DNA of 64,000 bases from Parcubacteria group bacterium M6-OD1-1 (GCA_003056085.1 LSNK01000005.1:10122-74121); one strand, 5' to 3'. Counted from the first letter of the stretch, positions 19,881 through 35,479 are shown. Notes: a model not told the origin generated them from the letters alone. A program made the numbers and translations.

Positions 19881-21113
19881 ATGGACCCACAAAACAACGA
19901 ACCCCAAGACAACCCAACGCCTAAAGACCTTCCGATTCTCGATGACAGAAAAGTAGAAACTCATACAATGCAGGAAGATTTGCAAAAAGCAAGTCCGGAA
20001 GAATCAGAAGATCAAGAACAAACTCCAAAAGAAACTGCTGATTCTCCTGAACCTCAAATACCTACACCTCCAACTCCTCCGTTAATACCTCAAAAACAAG
20101 AAACCAAAAAATCGATTTTTGACAAATTTAGAAAACCAAAAGGAATTGAACCGACAGCGCCTGATATACCAAAATTAAAAAAAATGATGCCAAAACTTTC
20201 GGCTGTAGAAGGATCGCCGGAAAAAGAAGAAAGACAAGAACCAACATCCGACATTTCAGACCAAAAACCAAAAATATCCGCTTCTGAAAAAAAATTAGAC
20301 ATCAAAATCCCCGGCAAAAAAAGCAGGCTTTCTATGATAATAATTTTTACAGTGATACTGACGATAGTTGCCGCAGGTGCAGGGTTTGGCTATTATTGGT
20401 TTTTTGCAAAAGAAGCTCCAAAAGAAACAACAAATAAACCGACCCAAGAACAACCGGAAGTCATTGAAGTTCCAAAACCTGTTGTAAAAGAACCTAAAAT
20501 AAAAAAACCAATTAAAGAAGTAGTTTCTATAGGGATACCTGAGCCTAAAATTCCACAAACCAACATAGACTTTGCTCAAACTATTATTACTACTGCAGAC
20601 AAAAAAGACAAAAGTGAATTTATAAAAAATTTAAGAGCAGATTCAAAATCAATAGCAGGGGATGGAACAATAACAAGACATTTATTTAAGATTTCAAATG
20701 ATAACGAAAAAAGATTTTTGACAAACAAAGAACTTATGAGCACTCTTGGAATCTCAATACCAAATGATGTTTGGCCGTACATAAACAATATTGAATTTAT
20801 AAGCTATAAAGTCGGCAACTCTATAAGGTACGGATTTATCGCAAAAACAACAAATGAAGACGCTCTTAAAGAAAATATGAAACAGTGGGGAACAAAAATG
20901 ATACAAGACTTAACGCAGCTGTTTATGGGAGAACCTATAACCATCCCTGAAAATCCTGCTTTTTCTAAAAATTCTTATCTTACATTTAAAAAAAGATACA
21001 TCAACTTAATAAGTCCTGAAATAAGCTTGGACTACGCAATATCAAAAGATTATCTTATTGTGGCAACATCAAAAGATATGATGTTTGCATCAATTTTGCA
21101 GGTTCAGAAATAA
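19881..21113 (+). CDS. hypothetical membrane-anchored protein
   Basis: Pro/Glu/Lys-rich disordered N-terminal region of about 140 aa, single TM (MIIIFTVILTIVAAGAGFGYYWFF), then an extracytoplasmic domain of about 250 aa. Confidence 0.5.
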   Translation: MDPQNNEPQDNPTPKDLPILDDRKVETHTMQEDLQKASPEESEDQEQTPKETADSPEPQIPTPPTPPLIPQKQETKKSIFDKFRKPKGIEPTAPDIPKLKKMMPKLSAVEGSPEKEERQEPTSDISDQKPKISASEKKLDIKIPGKKSRLSMIIIFTVILTIVAAGAGFGYYWFFAKEAPKETTNKPTQEQPEVIEVPKPVVKEPKIKKPIKEVVSIGIPEPKIPQTNIDFAQTIITTADKKDKSEFIKNLRADSKSIAGDGTITRHLFKISNDNEKRFLTNKELMSTLGISIPNDVWPYINNIEFISYKVGNSIRYGFIAKTTNEDALKENMKQWGTKMIQDLTQLFMGEPITIPENPAFSKNSYLTFKKRYINLISPEISLDYAISKDYLIVATSKDMMFASILQVQK

Positions 21114-22447: not shown

Positions 22448-23155
22448 TTAGCTTGAGTTTAAATATCTATAAGCTTCAATAATCCAATTATCTATATTTG
22501 GCTCATTGTCCCACAACTTCTTCATGAGAATTATGTGTTTTTCATGTGCGGGATATACTTTTGTTTCTACTTGACCATGCATAGCGATAAATTCGGGCAA
22601 GTCTAAAATCACACCATTAAACAACTCCGCCAGATCCCAATATATTCCATCATCTGGATTTAATTTTGCAAAAACATCAGAGTGATTTCTATTTGCATAA
22701 TCATAAAAAAAGAAATGTAATACTTCATGAGCAGCAATATAATTAGACCCCGCTCTGTGTTTGTAGAATATTTGAAATGTTTTGCTGTCTAAAAATCTTG
22801 GATTGCAATTTATTATTGACAAGTAACCGATATATTTTCCTTCGGGTGTTTCTGGATTTTTGAATATTTTATTTATTTGTTCAATAAATTTATTCTCAAC
22901 AGGTTCCCAGTCTTCGCGGAATTGTTCAATACAGTCAAGGAGTTCCTTCTCGTGTTTTTTGTAGTATCTGTCAAAATAATCATTGATAATTTCCTTTCTT
23001 TCTACCTCGCTTTTTTCTTTAATATTTTTTATTTCAGGATGCGGACCAGTTACTCCTTGAGAAAAATCCACACCACCTGCCTCGTTATCCAAAAACACAA
23101 GAGCCATCTCTTTATCAAGTTCTTTATTTAGTTTAAATGTTATATGTAATTTCAT
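22448..23155 (-). CDS. hypothetical protein with HExxH motif (possible zincin-like metallopeptidase)
   Basis: 235 aa with AAHEVLHFFFYD. No other recognisable family. Confidence 0.4.
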   Translation of the reverse strand: MKLHITFKLNKELDKEMALVFLDNEAGGVDFSQGVTGPHPEIKNIKEKSEVERKEIINDYFDRYYKKHEKELLDCIEQFREDWEPVENKFIEQINKIFKNPETPEGKYIGYLSIINCNPRFLDSKTFQIFYKHRAGSNYIAAHEVLHFFFYDYANRNHSDVFAKLNPDDGIYWDLAELFNGVILDLPEFIAMHGQVETKVYPAHEKHIILMKKLWDNEPNIDNWIIEAYRYLNSS

Positions 23156-23214
23156 AAATACTTAAAATCATTAATTATTGTTTGTTTGTAGATAAATTTA
23201 ATTATACCAAAAAT

Positions 23215-23239
23215 AAAGGCAAGCGCGTAGCTTGCCTTT
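23215..23239. terminator. GC-rich hairpin at the left border of the GC-rich island
   Basis: aaaggcaagc-gcgta-gcttgccttt. The same GGCAAGC/GCTTGCC stem recurs at 23605-23637. Confidence 0.5.
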
Positions 23240-23258
23240 GAAATTAAGCACTGTCTGT

Positions 23259-23507
23259 TCAATCAACATCCGACAGAATATGGTTGGCTCCATTTAGTAT
23301 ATATTTATACCCCAAACAAGTAACCACTTGTCCATTGTAAAAATACCAGCCCGCTTCCTCAACCTCTATCTCATCACCAACACGAAGCCGATAATCCAAC
23401 GCATCATTAATATCAAGATACGCCTTACCAAGATCTGTTTCAATAACAGCAAGGATTTTATCGTTAGTAAAACCAACAATCTTACCTTTCACATTTGAAG
23501 TACTCAT
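23259..23507 (-). CDS. hypothetical small protein (82 aa) on the GC-rich island
   Basis: GC-rich codon usage unlike the host. Preceded on the minus strand by a GGAGG RBS, and the conserved promoter-like block lies upstream. Confidence 0.5.
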   Translation of the reverse strand: MSTSNVKGKIVGFTNDKILAVIETDLGKAYLDINDALDYRLRVGDEIEVEEAGWYFYNGQVVTCLGYKYILNGANHILSDVD

Positions 23508-23547
23508 GGCACACCTCCTCAGGTGATTAAATTGATTTTAAAAAAAC

Positions 23548-23610
23548 AAACTATCTCTTTGAAAATTCTACTAAAAAAAGTTGAAGTAAAATTCTCAAAA
23601 AATAGGGCAA
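23548..23610 (-). promoter_or_regulatory. conserved promoter/operator-like cassette, copy 1
   Basis: A 21-nt block aaactatctctttgaaaattc and a block aaattctcaaaaaatagggcaa shared with copy 2. Confidence 0.4.
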
Positions 23611-23637
23611 GCTACTCGAATCATTCTTTCGCTTGCC
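23605..23637 (-). terminator. intrinsic terminator of the 85-aa gene (minus strand)
   Basis: GGCAAGC-loop-GCTTGCC followed on the minus strand by cuauuuuuugag. Confidence 0.5.
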
Positions 23638-23645
23638 AATATGCC

Positions 23646-23903
23646 TCAAGGACCTAAATCCAAAATAAGTTTCTCCAGTACTCTGTTTCCTTCCTGAATA
23701 CGCCTCATGGATTCCTCAATTATCCTTTGGGTCTTTTTGTCGGCTTCCTGCCTTTTTAGGTGCTCTGCTCTTGCTCTGGCCGTGTGCATTATTACATGTT
23801 TCAGAACTTCTTGCGCCTCCTTTAAATCTTCTTCTTCAGAAGCAAAGGCAATATTTCCAAAAACAAATACCAATGTTACCAAAATAGCTGTTAATGTTCT
23901 CAT
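23646..23903 (-). CDS. small secreted helical protein (85 aa, signal peptide)
   Basis: MRTLTAILVTLVFVFGNIAFA signal peptide followed by a charged helical region. AGGAGAAG RBS upstream on the minus strand. Confidence 0.55.
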   Translation of the reverse strand: MRTLTAILVTLVFVFGNIAFASEEEDLKEAQEVLKHVIMHTARARAEHLKRQEADKKTQRIIEESMRRIQEGNRVLEKLILDLGP

Positions 23904-23932
23904 GACGCTTCTCCTTTTGGTTCAATTTAAGT

Positions 23933-23986
23933 AAACTATCTCTTTGAAAATTCCAACAATGCTGAAATTCTCAAAAGATAGGGCGA
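23933..23986 (-). promoter_or_regulatory. conserved promoter/operator-like cassette, copy 2
   Basis: Same two sequence blocks as 23548-23610. Confidence 0.4.
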
Positions 23987-23999
23987 ACGTTTGCTCGCC
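23980..23999 (-). terminator. intrinsic terminator (minus strand) ending the structured GC-rich segment
   Basis: GGGCGAGC-aaacgt-TCGCCC followed by uaucuuuug on the minus strand. Confidence 0.45.
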
Positions 24000-24208
24000 C
24001 AGTAAAACCATTAACCACGATCACGCCCGGTTACCAGCGAGGAGTCTGAGCGTATCTCCTGTTGTAGCTCTGATGAGAGTTTCAGTCTGTTATGCCTCTC
24101 ATCGCACCTGTGTGAGCAGTGCCCACCAAGTATCCTTGTTGATTTATTACACGCAGTCAGACCAAGGTCTGCGTGGAGAGGGTGTTACGCGAACGGTTCT
24201 AATCATCC
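24000..24208 (-). ncRNA. GC-rich structured non-coding segment (about 52% GC) downstream of the Zn-ribbon gene; class unknown
   Basis: Multiple local helices (GAUGAGAG/CUCUCAUC, GCAC/GUGC, CAGAC-CAAG-GUCUG, GGAG/CUCC). Only spurious overlapping ORFs cover it. Confidence 0.3.
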
Positions 24209-24436
24209 TCAATACTCCTCCCACTCGAGCTCCTCAGCTATTTCTCGCCAATATTCTTTATCGTCATCCGATATTTCAGAGGATGCCTGTGCCTGGCATT
24301 GTTGGTAGAAATAGAGCAAACCGGACGCCTTTTCAGAGTCATCTGCAATACACTCATTGCAGATGAATTCCCCGGCGACGCCGTGCCTGCCAACTTCCTT
24401 GTCCTTCTCGCACATCTCGCATTTGTATGTTTCCAT
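24209..24436 (-). CDS. small zinc-ribbon protein with acidic C-terminus
   Basis: CEMC...CNEC four-Cys ribbon, DDDKEYWREIAEELEWEEY tail. GGAG precedes METYK. The ORF track extends it to 24487 from a GTG. Confidence 0.5.
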   Translation of the reverse strand: METYKCEMCEKDKEVGRHGVAGEFICNECIADDSEKASGLLYFYQQCQAQASSEISDDDKEYWREIAEELEWEEY

Positions 24437-24695
24437 GACATTCTCCAACCCCAGAAAACCCGAGGCGCGGCTGCACCAAAACGGCACTGCTGTCTACACA
24501 CCAATCGCTTACGCTCTTGGGTAGACAGGTTGCGAAATATTCGCGATGTTTAATTTAAATGAACAATCTTTATTAACTGCCCTAACCATACAAGAAAAGA
24601 CATTGACAGTAAAATTATTTTATGTTTTAAATTTAGATACCCAAAATACCCTTTTAAATAATGGTTATTTTGAATGCTTTATCTGTCGGAAAAAC

Positions 24696-24723
24696 TTGAC
24701 AAAATGTGTTATTTTGTTATGCT
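24696..24723 (+). promoter_or_regulatory. sigma70-like promoter TTGACA-16-TATGCT, predicted leaderless transcript for the HTH regulator
   Basis: The -10 ends 6 nt before the ATG at 24730, so the TSS is expected at or next to the A of ATG. Confidence 0.4.
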
Positions 24724-24729
24724 TTTATC

Positions 24730-25536
24730 ATGAAATTATCATCGGAAAAAATAAAACTGCTTGGTTTATCTTGCAAAGAGATTCAGGTTCTTGATGCTCT
24801 ACGGGCGGGACATTCTACTCCGCTTCTTGTATCTGAACACACAAAGGTCTCTCGTCCTGCGATATATGAAATACTTGCCCGTCTGCACAAACGTGGACTC
24901 ATTAAAAGCAACATTAAAGACGGGAGGAAATACTGGTCGCGGGCAAAAGACAGAGATCTGGAGCGGGCACTCTATGAAACAAAGAAAGCGTTATTTGATT
25001 TTGAAGAAGGTGTTGAGGAAGTACAAGGACTTTCGGACTCAACTGTAATTGTACACAGAGGTGGTGAGGCAATTCGCAAGATAGTAATGGATATTGTAAA
25101 AAACCACAAAGAAGAACGCTTGTATGCGATACAAGGAGATGCTCCTGCTATTAGCTGGAGTAAAATAGTTGGTCTTGAGAGGATTAATGAGATGAATCGC
25201 CTTATTAAAAAGAACAGGATAATAACTGAACTTATCTTTCCTACTGGATGGTTTGAGAGACAAGTAAAACTCCTTGGTAAAAAATGGGCGGAGGACTTTG
25301 GAGAAAGAGCGGCGATATCGCATGAAATTGACGAGGATTACTTTAAACATGCAGGGCAAATATGGATATTCAAAAATTCCGTCTATCTTATCGCAATGAA
25401 TGAAGAAATTATCATTGAGGTGCGTAATTCTGAAATACAAAAACTCTTACTTTCCATGTTCAGCTTCATCCAAAACAATTCACGAAAATTTGATGTAAAT
25501 GCGCGATTGAGAAGTTTGATAGAAAAAGAAGATTAA
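24730..25536 (+). CDS. winged-helix transcriptional regulator (TrmB/MarR-like N-terminal HTH) with a C-terminal domain of unknown function
   Basis: LLGLSCKEIQVLDALRAGHSTPLLVSEHTKVSRPAIYEILARLHKRGLI. GC-rich codons at the N-terminus. The ORF-track start at 24706 is probably too early. Confidence 0.55.
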   Translation: MKLSSEKIKLLGLSCKEIQVLDALRAGHSTPLLVSEHTKVSRPAIYEILARLHKRGLIKSNIKDGRKYWSRAKDRDLERALYETKKALFDFEEGVEEVQGLSDSTVIVHRGGEAIRKIVMDIVKNHKEERLYAIQGDAPAISWSKIVGLERINEMNRLIKKNRIITELIFPTGWFERQVKLLGKKWAEDFGERAAISHEIDEDYFKHAGQIWIFKNSVYLIAMNEEIIIEVRNSEIQKLLLSMFSFIQNNSRKFDVNARLRSLIEKED

Positions 25537-25581
25537 AAATTTCAAATATATTAAAACTCTTTAGGCCTCTATTTTCTACTT

Positions 25582-25630
25582 AAAAAAATCACTACTTATT
25601 GCGCGACCGCGCAATAAGTAGTGATTTTTT
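25582..25630. terminator. perfect palindromic bidirectional terminator at the right border of the island
   Basis: aaaaaatcactacttattgcgcg-acc-cgcgcaataagtagtgatttttt. Confidence 0.6.
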
Positions 25631-25740
25631 ATTTCTCCTCTTGTTTTAAACAACAAAAAATATTAAAATATAAAATATAAAGTAATAAAATGCATTTTAA
25701 GGAAAATAATATCTGATTAATAATTTTATAAATCAAAAAT

Positions 25741-32134: not shown

Positions 32135-35100
32135 ATGGAAAGATTTTCAATAAAAAAAGCTCAAGAAGAAGCGGAAAAAATGAAAGACAAAATATCTTCC
32201 GGAGAATCTGAAAATTACAATGAAGCTGAAAAGATGATAGAAAAAGACAACGCACAATTGGATAAGAACATTGATGCAAAAGCAATAGAACATTTAGAAA
32301 AAGAAGAAAATAGAATTTTTACTGAAATTGAAATATCAGGAGTGGATGACCTTGCTGAAAGCATTAAAAAATTATCTCAAAAAACACATAAAGGAAGAGT
32401 GACTTCTGTTCATAGAGAGGGTCTTTTACGTATGATCCCTGAACTTAAAAAATTAATATTAAAACCAATTCCCACCAAAGAAGAACAAGAAAGAATAGAA
32501 GAATTGTACGGTTATTTAAAAGAAGAGGACGATAAATTATTTAAAGAGGCCAATAAACAAGAAATTGAAAAAGAAAAACCAAAAGAAACGAAAAAAGACA
32601 TAGTTTTTGAAAAAACAAGAAGTTTTGAAGAAAAAAATCAAGAAATTATTAACAAAGAGTTTGATAAAAATTCCGAAGAACTTCCCGACGAAGAAAAAAA
32701 AACAATAAAAAAACCTATTGAAAAAACAGAAGAAGAAACTGAAAAACCGGAAGAAACAAAACAAAAAATTGAAAAGGAAACCGAAACTGAAAAACAGACA
32801 GAAGAAAAATCAAAAATTGACCTTTCGCCGGAGCAGGAGCAAAAAATAGAAGAGGTATTTTTGAAATTTAACATCTCAAAGGAATACTTGGAAAACATGG
32901 AAGGATTTTCAGACCTTTCCTTCGGTCAACGTCTTTTGGTTGCAGAAAATCTAAATCATCTTATCGTAAAAGAAGCAAAAAAAGAGGCAAAGACGATACA
33001 AGAAACGGAAGCAAAAGAAAGCAGATTTAAAAACATGCTGAAGTTAGCGCTAACTTTAGGCGCAAGCAAAACTTTTCAAACAGCTGATTTGGAAAAATCT
33101 ATTTTACAAAAAAAGATATCAGAAGGCGTATCAGAAGACAACAAAACATATTTGGAACAAATGATAAAAAGCTCAAAAGAACTTTGCCCCGACGTAGAGG
33201 TGTCGGAAGATGGAAAATTGGAGATACAATACATAAAACAGTCAGAATTTGAAAAGTTAACTTTAATAGAAAAAATAGATGTTCTTGATTTTAATAAAGC
33301 GGCGAAAGAATTCAGCAAAATACCAAACGAATGGAAATATGACACCGCAAAAGAGAGTGAAAGACAAGCTTACGAAGAAAAAAAATCCTCTTATGATAAA
33401 TTAAGGGATGTCATCTTAAAATTAAAAACTAATTTGGAGGATGAAAAATCTGCGGCACTATTTATGAATGCCATTGATGAAAAAGTAGCTATAAACAGCC
33501 TGCTTAGCTCTAACCCGGACATTGAAAAAGAAATCCAAAAAATAACAAATCAATCTGCATTAGCAAAAGCGGCAAAAGAACTTATAAATCCAAACTCAAA
33601 TCTTGCATACGCAAGTTATGGTTACGCTGCTCGTGCCGGAGTAGTTGCGGTTTTAGGCGTAACAAGCCCTTTGGTGATCCCGGCTATTGCCGGAGCAGCC
33701 GGAGGAATTGGATTTTTTAAGAGCAGGAAGGAAGCAGAAAAAGCGGTCAGTGCAAGAAAAGCTTTAGGAAGAGAAGGAAAAGAGGTCAAAGAAAAACTAA
33801 AATATGAAACTGCGCAAGGCGAGAAAAAAGAAAGGGAACTAAAAGAATTCACTGATGCTTCATTTTTTTCAAAAAGAATAAACAGATTAAAAGACAAAAT
33901 AGAATCAATAGACGAAAGTGACCCTGACTTTGACAATCAATTGGAAATTTTAGAAAAAAAGATTTATGAAACTATGAGTCTTGCAGATGAAAAATTTAAA
34001 AGAGGATTGATTAATTTTGGCGATACAAAAGAGCAAATCACAAACAAACTTGATTTTGTGCAAAGCATGGGACGAGCGCGCGCTTATACAAAAACAAATA
34101 TACAAAACACTGAAAACAAAGTGTCTGAAATATTAAAAAGTGTAGGAGAACACCAAAACACAGCCGAAAACATACGAAAAAAAGAAGTTTGGAGAAAAGC
34201 AAGAAACGGAGCTTTAATACGCGCCGGATTTGCTTCCGCCGGAGCAGCTATAGCCGGTTTTGTCCATTCTCCTGATGTGGAAAAGCCTGAAACTTTAGAA
34301 GACCAAACCATCCTCAAAAAAGAGTCTGAGTTTCCGGAATCACAAATTAAGGAATTCCCGCCTAAACAAGAAATAACATTTTCAGAAACACCCAAAATAG
34401 TAAGTGAAGAAAATATAGCTAAACTTTATCAATGGGAAAATAAAAATAATATTGACCATTCCGTTGTGGTGAATATCCATAAAGAGTTAGTTAAAAATCC
34501 TGAACTGGAAACCGGACTTACAGATAAAAATTTAAAATTCATTGAAAATAATACAGAACTGTTTAAAAACGAAAATGCAGCTGAAAAAATACAGAAGCTT
34601 CTTTCACAAAATGAACTCATTTATGAAATAAGGAAAGGAGACAATTTATGGAATATAATAAAATCTCAGCTGGAAGACAGAAAGATCACAGAAGGTTTAA
34701 GTGAAGGAAAACAAACTTATATAATTGACGACTTAAAAGACAAATTTGCTAAACTAAATTCGGAGGAGCTAAAAAAACTTGGAATATCAAGTGGGAATAT
34801 AGACAAACTCACCGCAGGAGATAAAATTGATTTAACATCTGTTTTAGGTTCAAAAAATGGATTGGGCAACATTTCTAATGCTGTTGAAGGGGCGCAGAAA
34901 TTATCAGAAGAACAAATTGCGAACATTGAAGCAAACAACACAAAAATAGATTCTTTTTATGATGAACTAAGAGAAGCAAAAGCGGAAAATCCCGACATAA
35001 AGATACCCCAACTTAACGAAGATATGGCAGATAAAATAATAAAAGGTGAGATTAATGTAAGAAGTTATATAAATCCGGAAGTCTCGGGACAACAAGCGGT

Positions 35101-35479
35101 AGAATCTGCGGTAGACATCTCTTCGATAGAAAATATAAAAGATGCCATAACTAATGGAAAAACAGAAAGCATTATTGGTGAATATAACGAAGATTTATTT
35201 GAAGGAGTTTCGGGAGAAGTATTAAAAAATGGAGATACTGTTGTAAGTTTCAACGTTAAAAATAACGCAGCTGATGTAAAATTAATTATTACTCAAGAAG
35301 GCAAAATGGCGATAGACGGCTGGGGTTTAAGAAATTGGCCTGAAAATGTAAAATTGGGATGGTTATTTGGATCCAGAAAATTAGATACATTTACAGACTT
35401 AACCGATAAAAACATGAAAGAAGCCTTGGAATTTATAAACAAAGGAAAAGCAATAATAATAGAGAAGCCGGAAGAATAA
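32135..35479 (+). CDS. large (1114 aa) Glu/Lys-rich coiled-coil protein with two glycine-zipper-like hydrophobic segments
   Basis: Long low-complexity helical regions. Hydrophobic GxxxG-rich segments YGYAARAGVVAVLGVTSPLVIPAIAGAAGGIGFF and IRAGFASAGAAIAGFV. C-terminal globular part of about 250 aa. Confidence 0.5.
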   Translation: MERFSIKKAQEEAEKMKDKISSGESENYNEAEKMIEKDNAQLDKNIDAKAIEHLEKEENRIFTEIEISGVDDLAESIKKLSQKTHKGRVTSVHREGLLRMIPELKKLILKPIPTKEEQERIEELYGYLKEEDDKLFKEANKQEIEKEKPKETKKDIVFEKTRSFEEKNQEIINKEFDKNSEELPDEEKKTIKKPIEKTEEETEKPEETKQKIEKETETEKQTEEKSKIDLSPEQEQKIEEVFLKFNISKEYLENMEGFSDLSFGQRLLVAENLNHLIVKEAKKEAKTIQETEAKESRFKNMLKLALTLGASKTFQTADLEKSILQKKISEGVSEDNKTYLEQMIKSSKELCPDVEVSEDGKLEIQYIKQSEFEKLTLIEKIDVLDFNKAAKEFSKIPNEWKYDTAKESERQAYEEKKSSYDKLRDVILKLKTNLEDEKSAALFMNAIDEKVAINSLLSSNPDIEKEIQKITNQSALAKAAKELINPNSNLAYASYGYAARAGVVAVLGVTSPLVIPAIAGAAGGIGFFKSRKEAEKAVSARKALGREGKEVKEKLKYETAQGEKKERELKEFTDASFFSKRINRLKDKIESIDESDPDFDNQLEILEKKIYETMSLADEKFKRGLINFGDTKEQITNKLDFVQSMGRARAYTKTNIQNTENKVSEILKSVGEHQNTAENIRKKEVWRKARNGALIRAGFASAGAAIAGFVHSPDVEKPETLEDQTILKKESEFPESQIKEFPPKQEITFSETPKIVSEENIAKLYQWENKNNIDHSVVVNIHKELVKNPELETGLTDKNLKFIENNTELFKNENAAEKIQKLLSQNELIYEIRKGDNLWNIIKSQLEDRKITEGLSEGKQTYIIDDLKDKFAKLNSEELKKLGISSGNIDKLTAGDKIDLTSVLGSKNGLGNISNAVEGAQKLSEEQIANIEANNTKIDSFYDELREAKAENPDIKIPQLNEDMADKIIKGEINVRSYINPEVSGQQAVESAVDISSIENIKDAITNGKTESIIGEYNEDLFEGVSGEVLKNGDTVVSFNVKNNAADVKLIITQEGKMAIDGWGLRNWPENVKLGWLFGSRKLDTFTDLTDKNMKEALEFINKGKAIIIEKPEE

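Follow-up and report, generated by a model that had tools for sequence, protein, structure and literature searches.

RESULTS

Organization and base composition of the locus

We analyzed a 64-kb stretch of DNA from Parcubacteria group bacterium M6-OD1-1 (GCA_003056085.1, LSNK01000005.1:10122-74121), hereafter called the window, with positions counted from its first letter. The subject of this study is a compact locus at 23160-25640, where a gene for a TrmB-like regulator on the plus strand diverges from a minus-strand series made up of a structured 5′ leader, a small open reading frame (ORF) for a Zn-ribbon protein, a conserved structured RNA that belongs to no known family, and two further small genes for proteins of 85 and 82 amino acids (aa). 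A first-pass annotation made from the sequence alone had named three small genes, a regulator, repeated terminator-promoter cassettes, and a structured non-coding segment, and all of these are present. Related loci, designated here by L numbers, were obtained by exact-protein look-ups and by pattern scans with the 82-aa and TrmB-like protein families. Among these, L008 is from a sister strain and L011 is from Parcubacteria GW2011_GWA1_47_8.

The window has a GC content of 32.1% (300-nt windows: standard deviation, 5.5%; 99th percentile, 44%; maximum, 50%). The locus had been described as a 2.4-kb island of about 50% GC, which overstates its extent: the region as a whole has 39%, and about 50% is reached only in 23985-24545, a segment of about 560 nt that forms the top peak of the 64 kb. 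Within this peak, the 5′ leader (24437-24545) has 55% GC, the Zn-ribbon ORF 48%, and the segment 3′ of that ORF 51%. The genes for the 82-aa, 85-aa, and TrmB-like proteins have 37-40%, and all four genes of the locus exceed the window mean. GC at third codon positions (GC3) is 24.5 ± 3.5% in the 43 other ORFs, with a maximum of 31.6%. The shift in codon usage that had been proposed for the region is extreme in the Zn-ribbon ORF (GC3 56.6%, z = 9.2) and mild in the 85-aa and TrmB-like genes (34.9% and 33.8%, z about 2.7-3.0), and it does not extend to the 82-aa gene, which falls inside the background range (28.9%, z = 1.3).

The GC peak coincides with the leader and the RNA in every variant of the locus, irrespective of the ORF that lies between them. 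At L014, for example, the ORF has 33% GC, and the leader and RNA on either side of it have 51% and 48%. The peak is a composite of two conserved structured non-coding segments and one ORF of foreign codon composition, and that ORF is the sole part of the locus that looks recently imported. The layout of regulator, leader, ORF, RNA, cassette, and 82-aa gene recurs in relatives with a genomic GC of 44-50%, where it is compositionally native.

A conserved structured-RNA candidate between an ORF and its terminator

The RNA core, supported by conservation, broken reading frames, and folding, comprises 167 nt at 24011-24177 on the minus strand. It is followed at 23972-24010 by a tail and an intrinsic terminator (stem at 23981-24000, then a T run). 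A search with nhmmer found this 3′ segment in L008, L014, L020, and L022 with E values of 1e-65 to 1e-78. The core is 94-98% identical in L008, L020, and L022, compared with 76-84% nucleotide identity for the adjacent regulator genes, and it is 89% identical in L014, where a loop carries an 8-nt insertion. The terminator that ends the RNA exists in two versions, as L014, L020, and L022 carry a different, fully paired stem (GCAGGAACG..CGTTCCTGC).

The earlier description of 24000-24208 as a structured non-coding segment is borne out on both counts. In the window, the RNA folds more stably than shuffled sequences (z = -2.8 to -3.3), as does the L011 copy described below (z = -2.8), and the whole 586-nt unit reaches z = -4.1. 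The reading frames of the segment on both strands are interrupted in homologues, by the 8-nt insertion in L014 and by a CAG to TAG change in L014 and L020. Thus, the segment is not coding in its homologues, and judged from these sequences the RNA is non-coding.

A covariance model built from five copies of the RNA returned one more match in 151 kb of related loci (E = 0.003). This match, in L011, sits exactly at the syntenic position, directly after the first ORF of that locus. It retains the first hairpin stem, the GAGC/GCUC hairpin, and the last hairpin (with an A-U pair changed to G-C), as well as UCCUCGC, the 3′ strand of a long-range helix that is fully paired there; the central part differs. 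Because the L011 regulator is merely 23% identical to the regulator in the window, the arrangement must be old. Across the predicted helices, all 11 substitutions preserve pairing (10 one-sided and 1 two-sided), and 99.6% of the structure cells are paired. With its 26 G.U cells, the fold applies to the minus strand specifically. The covariation itself is suggestive only, since there is little variation and the shuffle control was not significant (see Discussion).

No family in Rfam matches the RNA. At the gathering threshold, Rfam 15 reports only two tRNAs in the window, and in E-value mode the best hit to the RNA has E = 9 (10.7 bits); the L011 locus is likewise without a match. ARAGORN identified two distant tRNAs and no transfer-messenger RNA in the window. 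A blastn search of 23960-24600 against phage and plasmid collections gave no match, and viral contigs scanned with exact patterns of two hairpins, the first one of the RNA and that of the leader, gave none. The rest of the 64 kb contains no second leader or RNA and no additional cassette, and two covariance models (R1 and R2) detected no RNA copy in L004, L009, L010, L012, L016, L021, or L023-L025. The transcript that carries the RNA has no conserved internal promoter, and the sequences upstream of the RNA differ between loci.

Two additional pairings were considered and discarded. A closing helix for the RNA (CCACG/CGUGG) has uncompensated changes in L014, L020, and L022 and competes with the last hairpin that covaries in L011, and a 9-nt complementarity between leader and RNA is disrupted in L014. 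Hairpin 3 of the RNA is complementary to the region of the 5′ untranslated region (UTR) and Shine-Dalgarno (SD) sequence of the 82-aa gene, with 1.7% of shuffles doing equally well before any correction for the three targets considered. That hairpin 3 might pair with this SD region is a speculative reading of the complementarity.

Unrelated ORFs occupy the position between leader and RNA

The ORF upstream of the RNA (24209-24436, minus strand) had been called as a Zn-ribbon gene, and we agree: it encodes a 75-aa protein with a CxxC-15-CxxC pattern and an acidic tail, and has an SD sequence 7 nt upstream. A word-based protein search with this ORF returned only itself, and an exhaustive search of 1.8e9 representatives yielded one distant homologue (48% identity, E = 4e-10). 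This lone homologue indicates that the ORF is real but rare. We had entertained the idea that the ORF is spurious and that the entire 560 nt is a single RNA; this was ruled out by the homologue and by the replacement of the middle portion with other ORFs.

Across relatives, at least five ORFs unrelated to one another are found in this slot. L008 aligns with the window up to position 24434 on the regulator side and then again from 24176, and the 257 nt between these points, which hold the Zn-ribbon ORF in the window, are replaced by an unrelated 111-aa ORF. The slot contains a 41-aa lipobox-like ORF in L014, a 245-aa ORF in L020, a 102-aa homologue of the L008 ORF (47% identity) in L022, and a 100-aa ORF in L023. 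The break points of these replacements are the start codon and the first base of the RNA, with conservation resuming at the same base, C(C/T)CACGCAG. Since the RNA is the invariant part of a unit whose protein is interchangeable, these findings argue that the RNA itself is the selected product.

The leader and its putative promoter

The putative promoter of the transcript for leader, ORF, and RNA, recognized from its sequence, lies at 24585-24613 on the minus strand (TTTACT, 17 nt, TATGGT). Alignments reveal that it is kept as TTTAAC/TTTACT-17-TATACT/TATGAT in L008, L014, L020, L022, L023, and L004. It is followed at 24437-24577 by the leader, whose 5′ end is a guess and whose structure is supported by alignments and compensatory changes. 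In an alignment of eight loci, the promoter and two hairpins are conserved. The first hairpin, GCGAA-UAU-UUCGC at 24532-24544, corresponds to a palindrome noted earlier (GCGAAATATTCGC), which is indeed present but had been placed five bases off, at 24527-24539. In L011 this hairpin has changed on both sides from GCGAA/UUCGC to GCGGA/UCCGC. The second hairpin, CCUCGGG..CUGGGG at 24449-24465, abuts the SD sequence GGAG (24443-24446) and has a U.G pair changed to A-U in L014. RNAalifold adds a closing helix for the leader, where a U-A pair is C-G in L008. The best Rfam hit to the leader (E = 1.2) is on the wrong strand. On the basis of these features, the leader looks like a translational control element.

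The window lineage alone carries a 59-nt insert in the leader (24471-24529, from the alignment) that includes a GNRA-capped hairpin. This insert, found in the window, L008, and L014 only, has GCA(A/G)CC on each side, folds into a long hairpin that contains tandem G.A pairs and a GUAA loop, and has the appearance of a small RNA module that was inserted.

A TrmB-like regulator, probably expressed from a leaderless mRNA

The regulator gene (24730-25536, plus strand; 268 aa) had been predicted to encode a TrmB/MarR-like helix-turn-helix protein with a leaderless promoter, which agrees with our results. The N-terminal TrmB winged helix-turn-helix (wHTH) domain PF01978 of Pfam scores 34 bits against a cut-off of 25.6 (E = 2.7e-8). 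An AlphaFold2 (AF2) model of the protein (predicted local distance difference test [pLDDT] score of 85) gives full-length Foldseek matches to TrmBL2 (5box and 5bpd; E = 3e-9) and TrmB (3qph; E = 2e-7), and proteins with the phospholipase D (PLD) fold match the model as well. The predicted structure therefore has a C-terminal domain of the TrmB type. The family is spread across Parcubacteria, with 88 clusters at E ≤ 1e-20 and 40-82% identity, some of them named Nomurabacteria or Azambacteria.

The regulator promoter (24696-24723, plus strand; TTGACA, 16 nt, TG-TATGCT) stops 6 nt before the ATG, there is no SD sequence, and in the alignment the distance from the -10 element to the ATG is preserved at 6-7 nt in relatives. 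This spacing and the absence of an SD sequence fit a leaderless mRNA. The gene is followed by a bidirectional terminator hairpin at 25583-25630, with 23-nt arms that are 100% complementary and A and T runs on both sides.

Proteins of the TrmB/TrmBL2 family include archaeal sugar regulators and a chromatin protein (PDB 3qph and 5box). The protein at this locus shares with them the N-terminal wHTH (PF01978), the fold of the C-terminal domain, and, with TrmBL2, a similar length. It differs in that its clade is bacterial (Parcubacteria), and its identity to the proteins of solved structure is 13-18%. Versions of 462 aa also exist, with bit scores equal to those of the full-length single-copy protein and about 60% identity; these may be tandem or extended forms.

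Repeated cassettes precede downstream single-gene modules

Downstream of the RNA, two single-gene units follow on the minus strand, each opened by a composite cassette whose parts are a terminator stem with its T-tract, an inverted repeat, a -35/-10 pair, and the 5′UTR CACCUGAGGAGGUG. Repeat searches place copy 1 at 23904-23978 (T-tract, inverted repeat TTTGAGAATT..AATTTTCAAA, 21-nt block at 23933-23953, and SD) and copy 2 at 23508-23602 (inverted repeat, promoter TTCAAA-17-TAAAAT, 21-nt block at 23548-23568, and the 5′UTR). The 21-nt blocks are identical, and 0 of 100 shuffles gave two matches; a second shared block of 20 nt is 95% identical. The spacing of these direct repeats is 385 nt. Terminator-like sites are also in excess (7, vs 1.8 ± 1.4 in shuffles), and each of the hairpins at 25583-25630, 23215-23239, and 23981-24000 is followed by a T run. 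Two of the terminators have a GGCAAGC stem in common. The repeated cassette, its identical 21-nt block, and this shared stem had all been noted from the sequence and were all recovered here.

The ORF calls for the two small minus-strand genes likewise agree with the earlier ones. The 85-aa gene (23646-23903) encodes a protein with a hydrophobic, signal-peptide-like N-terminus and a helical remainder. The terminator of this gene was identified from its sequence and inverted repeats at 23605-23637 (stem GGGCAAGC..GCTTGCC). The product has a weak match to a lipoprotein in PHROGs (E = 0.0013). The 82-aa gene (23259-23507), which ends in a terminator of 10 pairs and a T run at 23215-23239, is a conserved anchor that belongs to a small conserved protein family. 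Its product is predicted, with moderate confidence from the structure model, to adopt an OB fold with a five-stranded barrel. Searches of the small proteins from this and related loci against Pfam, PHROGs, and PADLOC assigned no family, and sequence searches of the PDB gave no match. The predicted OB-fold protein and the RNA occur together in four lineages.

The cassette is found one to three times each in L008, L014, L016, L020, L022, L023, and L024, before different small genes, and L011 has a diverged version. The module for the 85-aa protein is dispensable. It is missing from L014, where the cassette after the RNA runs straight into the 5′UTR of the 82-aa gene, and the junction lies inside the cassette with an overlap that matches both cassettes of the window. 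This is the expected product of recombination between two direct repeats 385 nt apart.

Several smaller features of the cassettes were observed. The inverted repeat TTTGAGAATT..AATTTTCAAA is located at 23943-23976 and 23558-23600 in the window and is perfect in L024 (299-334). Its two sides reach into the terminator T-tract and the -35 element, respectively, giving it the look of an operator. The shared 5′UTR CACCUGAGGAGGUG (23511-23524; also in L014, L016, L020, and L022) can self-pair through CACCU/AGGUG in a manner that would bury the SD sequence, and this pairing may provide a translational control common to the cassette genes. Also, L022 (930-690, minus strand) and L020 (about 735-420, minus strand) have GC-richer non-coding inserts of about 250-300 nt between cassette halves. 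Each insert ends with the cassette terminator and could be another RNA or a decayed module.

DISCUSSION

A probable native locus that exchanges small genes

We think it rather probable that the locus is native to Parcubacteria and clade-wide, and that it has been altered by the shuffling of small genes and is not a foreign island. A divergent promoter pair would produce a leaderless mRNA for the TrmB-like regulator in one direction and, in the other, a transcript with the leader, an ORF, the RNA, and the terminator. Downstream single-gene modules would each be opened by a cassette that combines a terminator, an inverted repeat over the -35 element, a sigma-70-like promoter, and an SD sequence in a small hairpin. 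Homologous recombination between the repeated cassettes, and between the leader and RNA flanks, would swap small ORFs among strains, much as the promoter-early stem-loop (PeSL) cassettes of phages discussed below do. The RNA would be the constant functional product that the first unit yields, transcribed as the 3′ portion of an mRNA and probably released as a stable RNA, and the inverted repeat would serve as an operator, possibly for the TrmB-like protein. The 50% GC peak would reflect base-pairing constraint in a 32%-GC genome together with one recently imported GC-rich ORF. We suggest, with low confidence, that the RNA has a regulatory role or is bound by protein, and that the co-located 82-aa protein with the predicted OB fold could be its partner.

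Several observations weigh against this account. The ends of the transcripts and any processing are inferred. In the covariation test, 93 of 500 shuffles reach the observed score, and the alignment consists of six sequences, five of which are nearly identical. The high conservation of the RNA could reflect recent spread by recombination. The RNA is also not obligatory, given that none was detected in L004 and L023, which share the framework. In the window, the two copies of the inverted repeat have spacers of different length (10 and 21 nt), which is awkward for a simple dimer operator, and the OB-fold call comes from a model of moderate confidence (pLDDT 72). Moreover, flanking genes vary between distant relatives, vertical inheritance of the whole module is not proven, and the GC3 values of the TrmB-like and 85-aa genes top those of all 43 background ORFs, so that some of the module may have come from relatives with a higher GC content.

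Island, recombination sites, or secreted effector

A recent genomic island, in which the whole 2.4-kb block came from a GC-richer donor and is bounded by hairpins, is an unlikely explanation, though the most probable of the alternatives. Base composition can be read either way. All four genes exceed the mean GC, GC3 is high in the Zn-ribbon, TrmB-like, and 85-aa genes, and relatives with the same architecture have 44-50% GC, which would suit a GC-richer donor; however, only 560 nt reaches 50%, and the peak follows the non-coding leader and RNA. The hairpins at 23215-23239 and 25582-25630, once taken as the borders of the compositional shift, are both ordinary intrinsic terminators. No tRNA gene or direct repeat is present at the module borders (the tRNAs are 8-19 kb away), and no recombinase or integrase domain was found in the 17 window ORFs scanned (10.6-35.5 kb) or in the called genes of the related loci.

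The neighborhood is occupied by housekeeping genes, namely those for NusA, CCA-adding enzyme, PNPase, ComM, an M23 peptidase, and UvrD, with no phage genes. The sister strain L008 carries the module at the same site, beside dksA and comM, and the regulator belongs to a family conserved across Parcubacteria. This conservation, and a layout that is native in relatives of 44-50% GC, speak against the acquired island that the first-pass annotation proposed. Flanking genes do differ in distant relatives, and identity to L008 is mosaic (99.3% over 24176-23209 and about 84-91% in the flanks), as an island might produce. The raised GC3 of the regulator and 85-aa genes and the 99.3%-identical block indicate that recombination with relatives has shaped the module. 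Horizontal exchange is therefore supported for parts of the locus, by the GC3 of the Zn-ribbon ORF and the mosaic identity, but not for an island bounded by hairpins.

It is improbable that the 167-nt segment and the leader are DNA-level recombination sites, attC/attI-like or other, with no functional RNA. Such sites would explain why unrelated ORFs lie exactly between two highly conserved segments and why sequence conservation far exceeds the need of the fold alone, and PeSL+ORFan cassettes have been likened to integrons (PMC2839356). Arguing the other way, no tyrosine or serine recombinase is among the ORFs tested (10.6-35.5 kb) or in the related loci, and the segment is placed within a transcription unit, after a stop codon and ahead of a terminator. 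Substitutions leave RNA pairing intact, and the pairs kept include G.U, which the opposite strand would present as A.C. The downstream modules also have their own promoters, unlike integron cassettes.

Still less probable is the earlier suggestion that the locus encodes a bacteriocin or secreted effector along with a regulator and a small RNA (sRNA). Only the 85-aa product looks exported in the window; its signal-peptide-like N-terminus, the 41-aa lipobox-like ORF of L014, and the membrane proteins and tiny Cys-rich peptides in the arrays of relatives give the idea some substance, as does the likeness of strain-variable small genes with a shared promoter to bacteriocin loci such as blp. Yet the 85-aa gene can be lost, the products of the array appear for the most part to be cytosolic (Zn ribbon, OB fold, and a basic 47-aa protein), this function finds no backing in any Pfam, PHROG, or PADLOC family, and neither the window nor the related loci contain genes for transport, immunity, processing, or modification.

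Finally, we regard it as very improbable that 24011-24208 is coding or a decayed gene with an incidental fold: one minus-strand frame is open for about 59 codons and a 140-aa antisense ORF spans the segment in the window, but no conserved start opens either frame, the positions that vary follow no pattern by codon position, and the L014 insertion and the CAG to TAG changes in L014 and L020 break both frames while identity remains 89-96%.

Comparison with known systems

The proposed exchange of small genes at a native locus has its closest parallel in the PeSL cassettes of T4-type phages (Arbiol et al. 2010, PMC2839356; Comeau et al. 2014, PMC4122927). In those phages, orphan ORFs lie between composite promoter/stem-loop motifs, and genes are inserted, deleted, or replaced through recombination between the motifs; the authors noted that there was as yet no evidence for this mechanism in cellular organisms (PMC2839356). 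The locus described here similarly has a repeated motif composed of a terminator stem-loop and a sigma-70-like promoter (two copies in the window, and seven related loci). It brackets small orphan ORFs in a hyperplastic region, shows ORF gain, loss, and replacement with junctions within the motifs, and insulates every module transcriptionally. It differs in being located among housekeeping genes in a Parcubacteria chromosome with no match in phage or viral collections, in the addition of the inverted repeat and of a conserved 5′UTR and SD hairpin to the cassette, and in having one slot flanked by the leader and the conserved RNA instead of two cassettes. Because the architecture corresponds but the setting is a cellular chromosome, we describe the locus as working like PeSL and not as a member of that family.

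Integrons also present an array of small, strain-variable, mostly orphan ORFs between conserved structured sequences. This comparison fails since no integrase was found and every module of the locus has its own promoter and terminator. Furthermore, the separators at the locus are regulatory and conserved in sequence, whereas attC sites are conserved in structure only.

Some bacterial sRNAs, such as CpxQ and SroC in enterobacteria, are derived from 3′UTRs. Like these, the RNA at this locus is a structured element between a stop codon and the intrinsic terminator of an mRNA, and it is better conserved than the upstream coding region. Unlike these, its upstream ORF is non-homologous between strains, and its length of about 170-200 nt, with several hairpins, exceeds that of most such sRNAs.

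Long intergenic regions rich in GC are known to mark structured RNAs (DIMPL pipeline, PMC8723152; PMC11109978). The RNA resembles the orphan candidates found in such regions in that it is GC-rich, conserved, foldable, and non-coding, resides in a low-GC genome, and has no Rfam match. In contrast to them, it is apparently co-transcribed with a swappable ORF, and its copies are too few and too alike for covariation statistics.

What is possibly new here is the combination of an unclassified, strongly conserved structured-RNA candidate with cassette-mediated gene shuffling in a cell. A more specific version of this proposal, about which we are doubtful, is that Parcubacteria practice PeSL-like shuffling around a TrmBL2-like regulator and a constrained RNA core, possibly with an OB-fold protein, by plugging ORFs between leader and RNA. 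If true, it would constitute both a new RNA class and the first cellular case of modular gene exchange mediated by regulatory cassettes. The Candidate Phyla Radiation comprises organisms with minimal genomes and almost no experimentally characterized regulation or non-coding RNA, and conservation of the 167-nt RNA beyond that of its drifting neighbors makes it a strong candidate for a new class of functional RNA among these organisms. The locus also illustrates how tiny genomes may test new small proteins, with orphan ORFs placed in ready-made expression slots at the repeated cassettes (a mode of exchange whose only documented instances to date are in T4-type phages), and how a GC peak in an AT-rich genome can signal RNA structure and not foreign DNA.

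Other features of the window and related loci

In the sister strain, an AAA_14/DUF4143 ATPase gene (L008, 3273-4550; L007, 431-1708) that matches the PADLOC candidate defense gene PDC-S01 (E = 3e-93) adjoins the 82-aa gene. Genes for ATPases of this kind overlap the start of the TrmB-like gene in L020 (2084-3292) and L021 (189-1370) in an operon-like manner. The equivalent place in the window (22448-23155) is occupied by a 235-aa ORF with an HEVLH motif and no family match. Two other large window ORFs, at 32135-35479 (1114 aa) and 19881-21113 (410 aa), have no Pfam match at E ≤ 1e-4.

The arrays of relatives include tiny Cys-rich ORFs of 26 and 24 aa (L004, 4212-4292; L023, about 3327-3253, minus strand), each with four Cys residues and a strong SD sequence. 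A very basic protein of 47-67 aa (MKMKR..PRLPEEAR..KDKK..) without a Pfam match is encoded in four of these arrays: L022 (209-352, minus strand), L016 (249-392), L011 (6533-6709), and L023 (674-877, minus strand). Lastly, genes of toxin-antitoxin type (PemK, ParE, and a small gene pair in L014) adjoin the module in several relatives (L010, 252-635; L012, 263-646; L024, 2359-2745; L004, 8372-8656; and L014, 1235-1765), which fits a variable accessory neighborhood.

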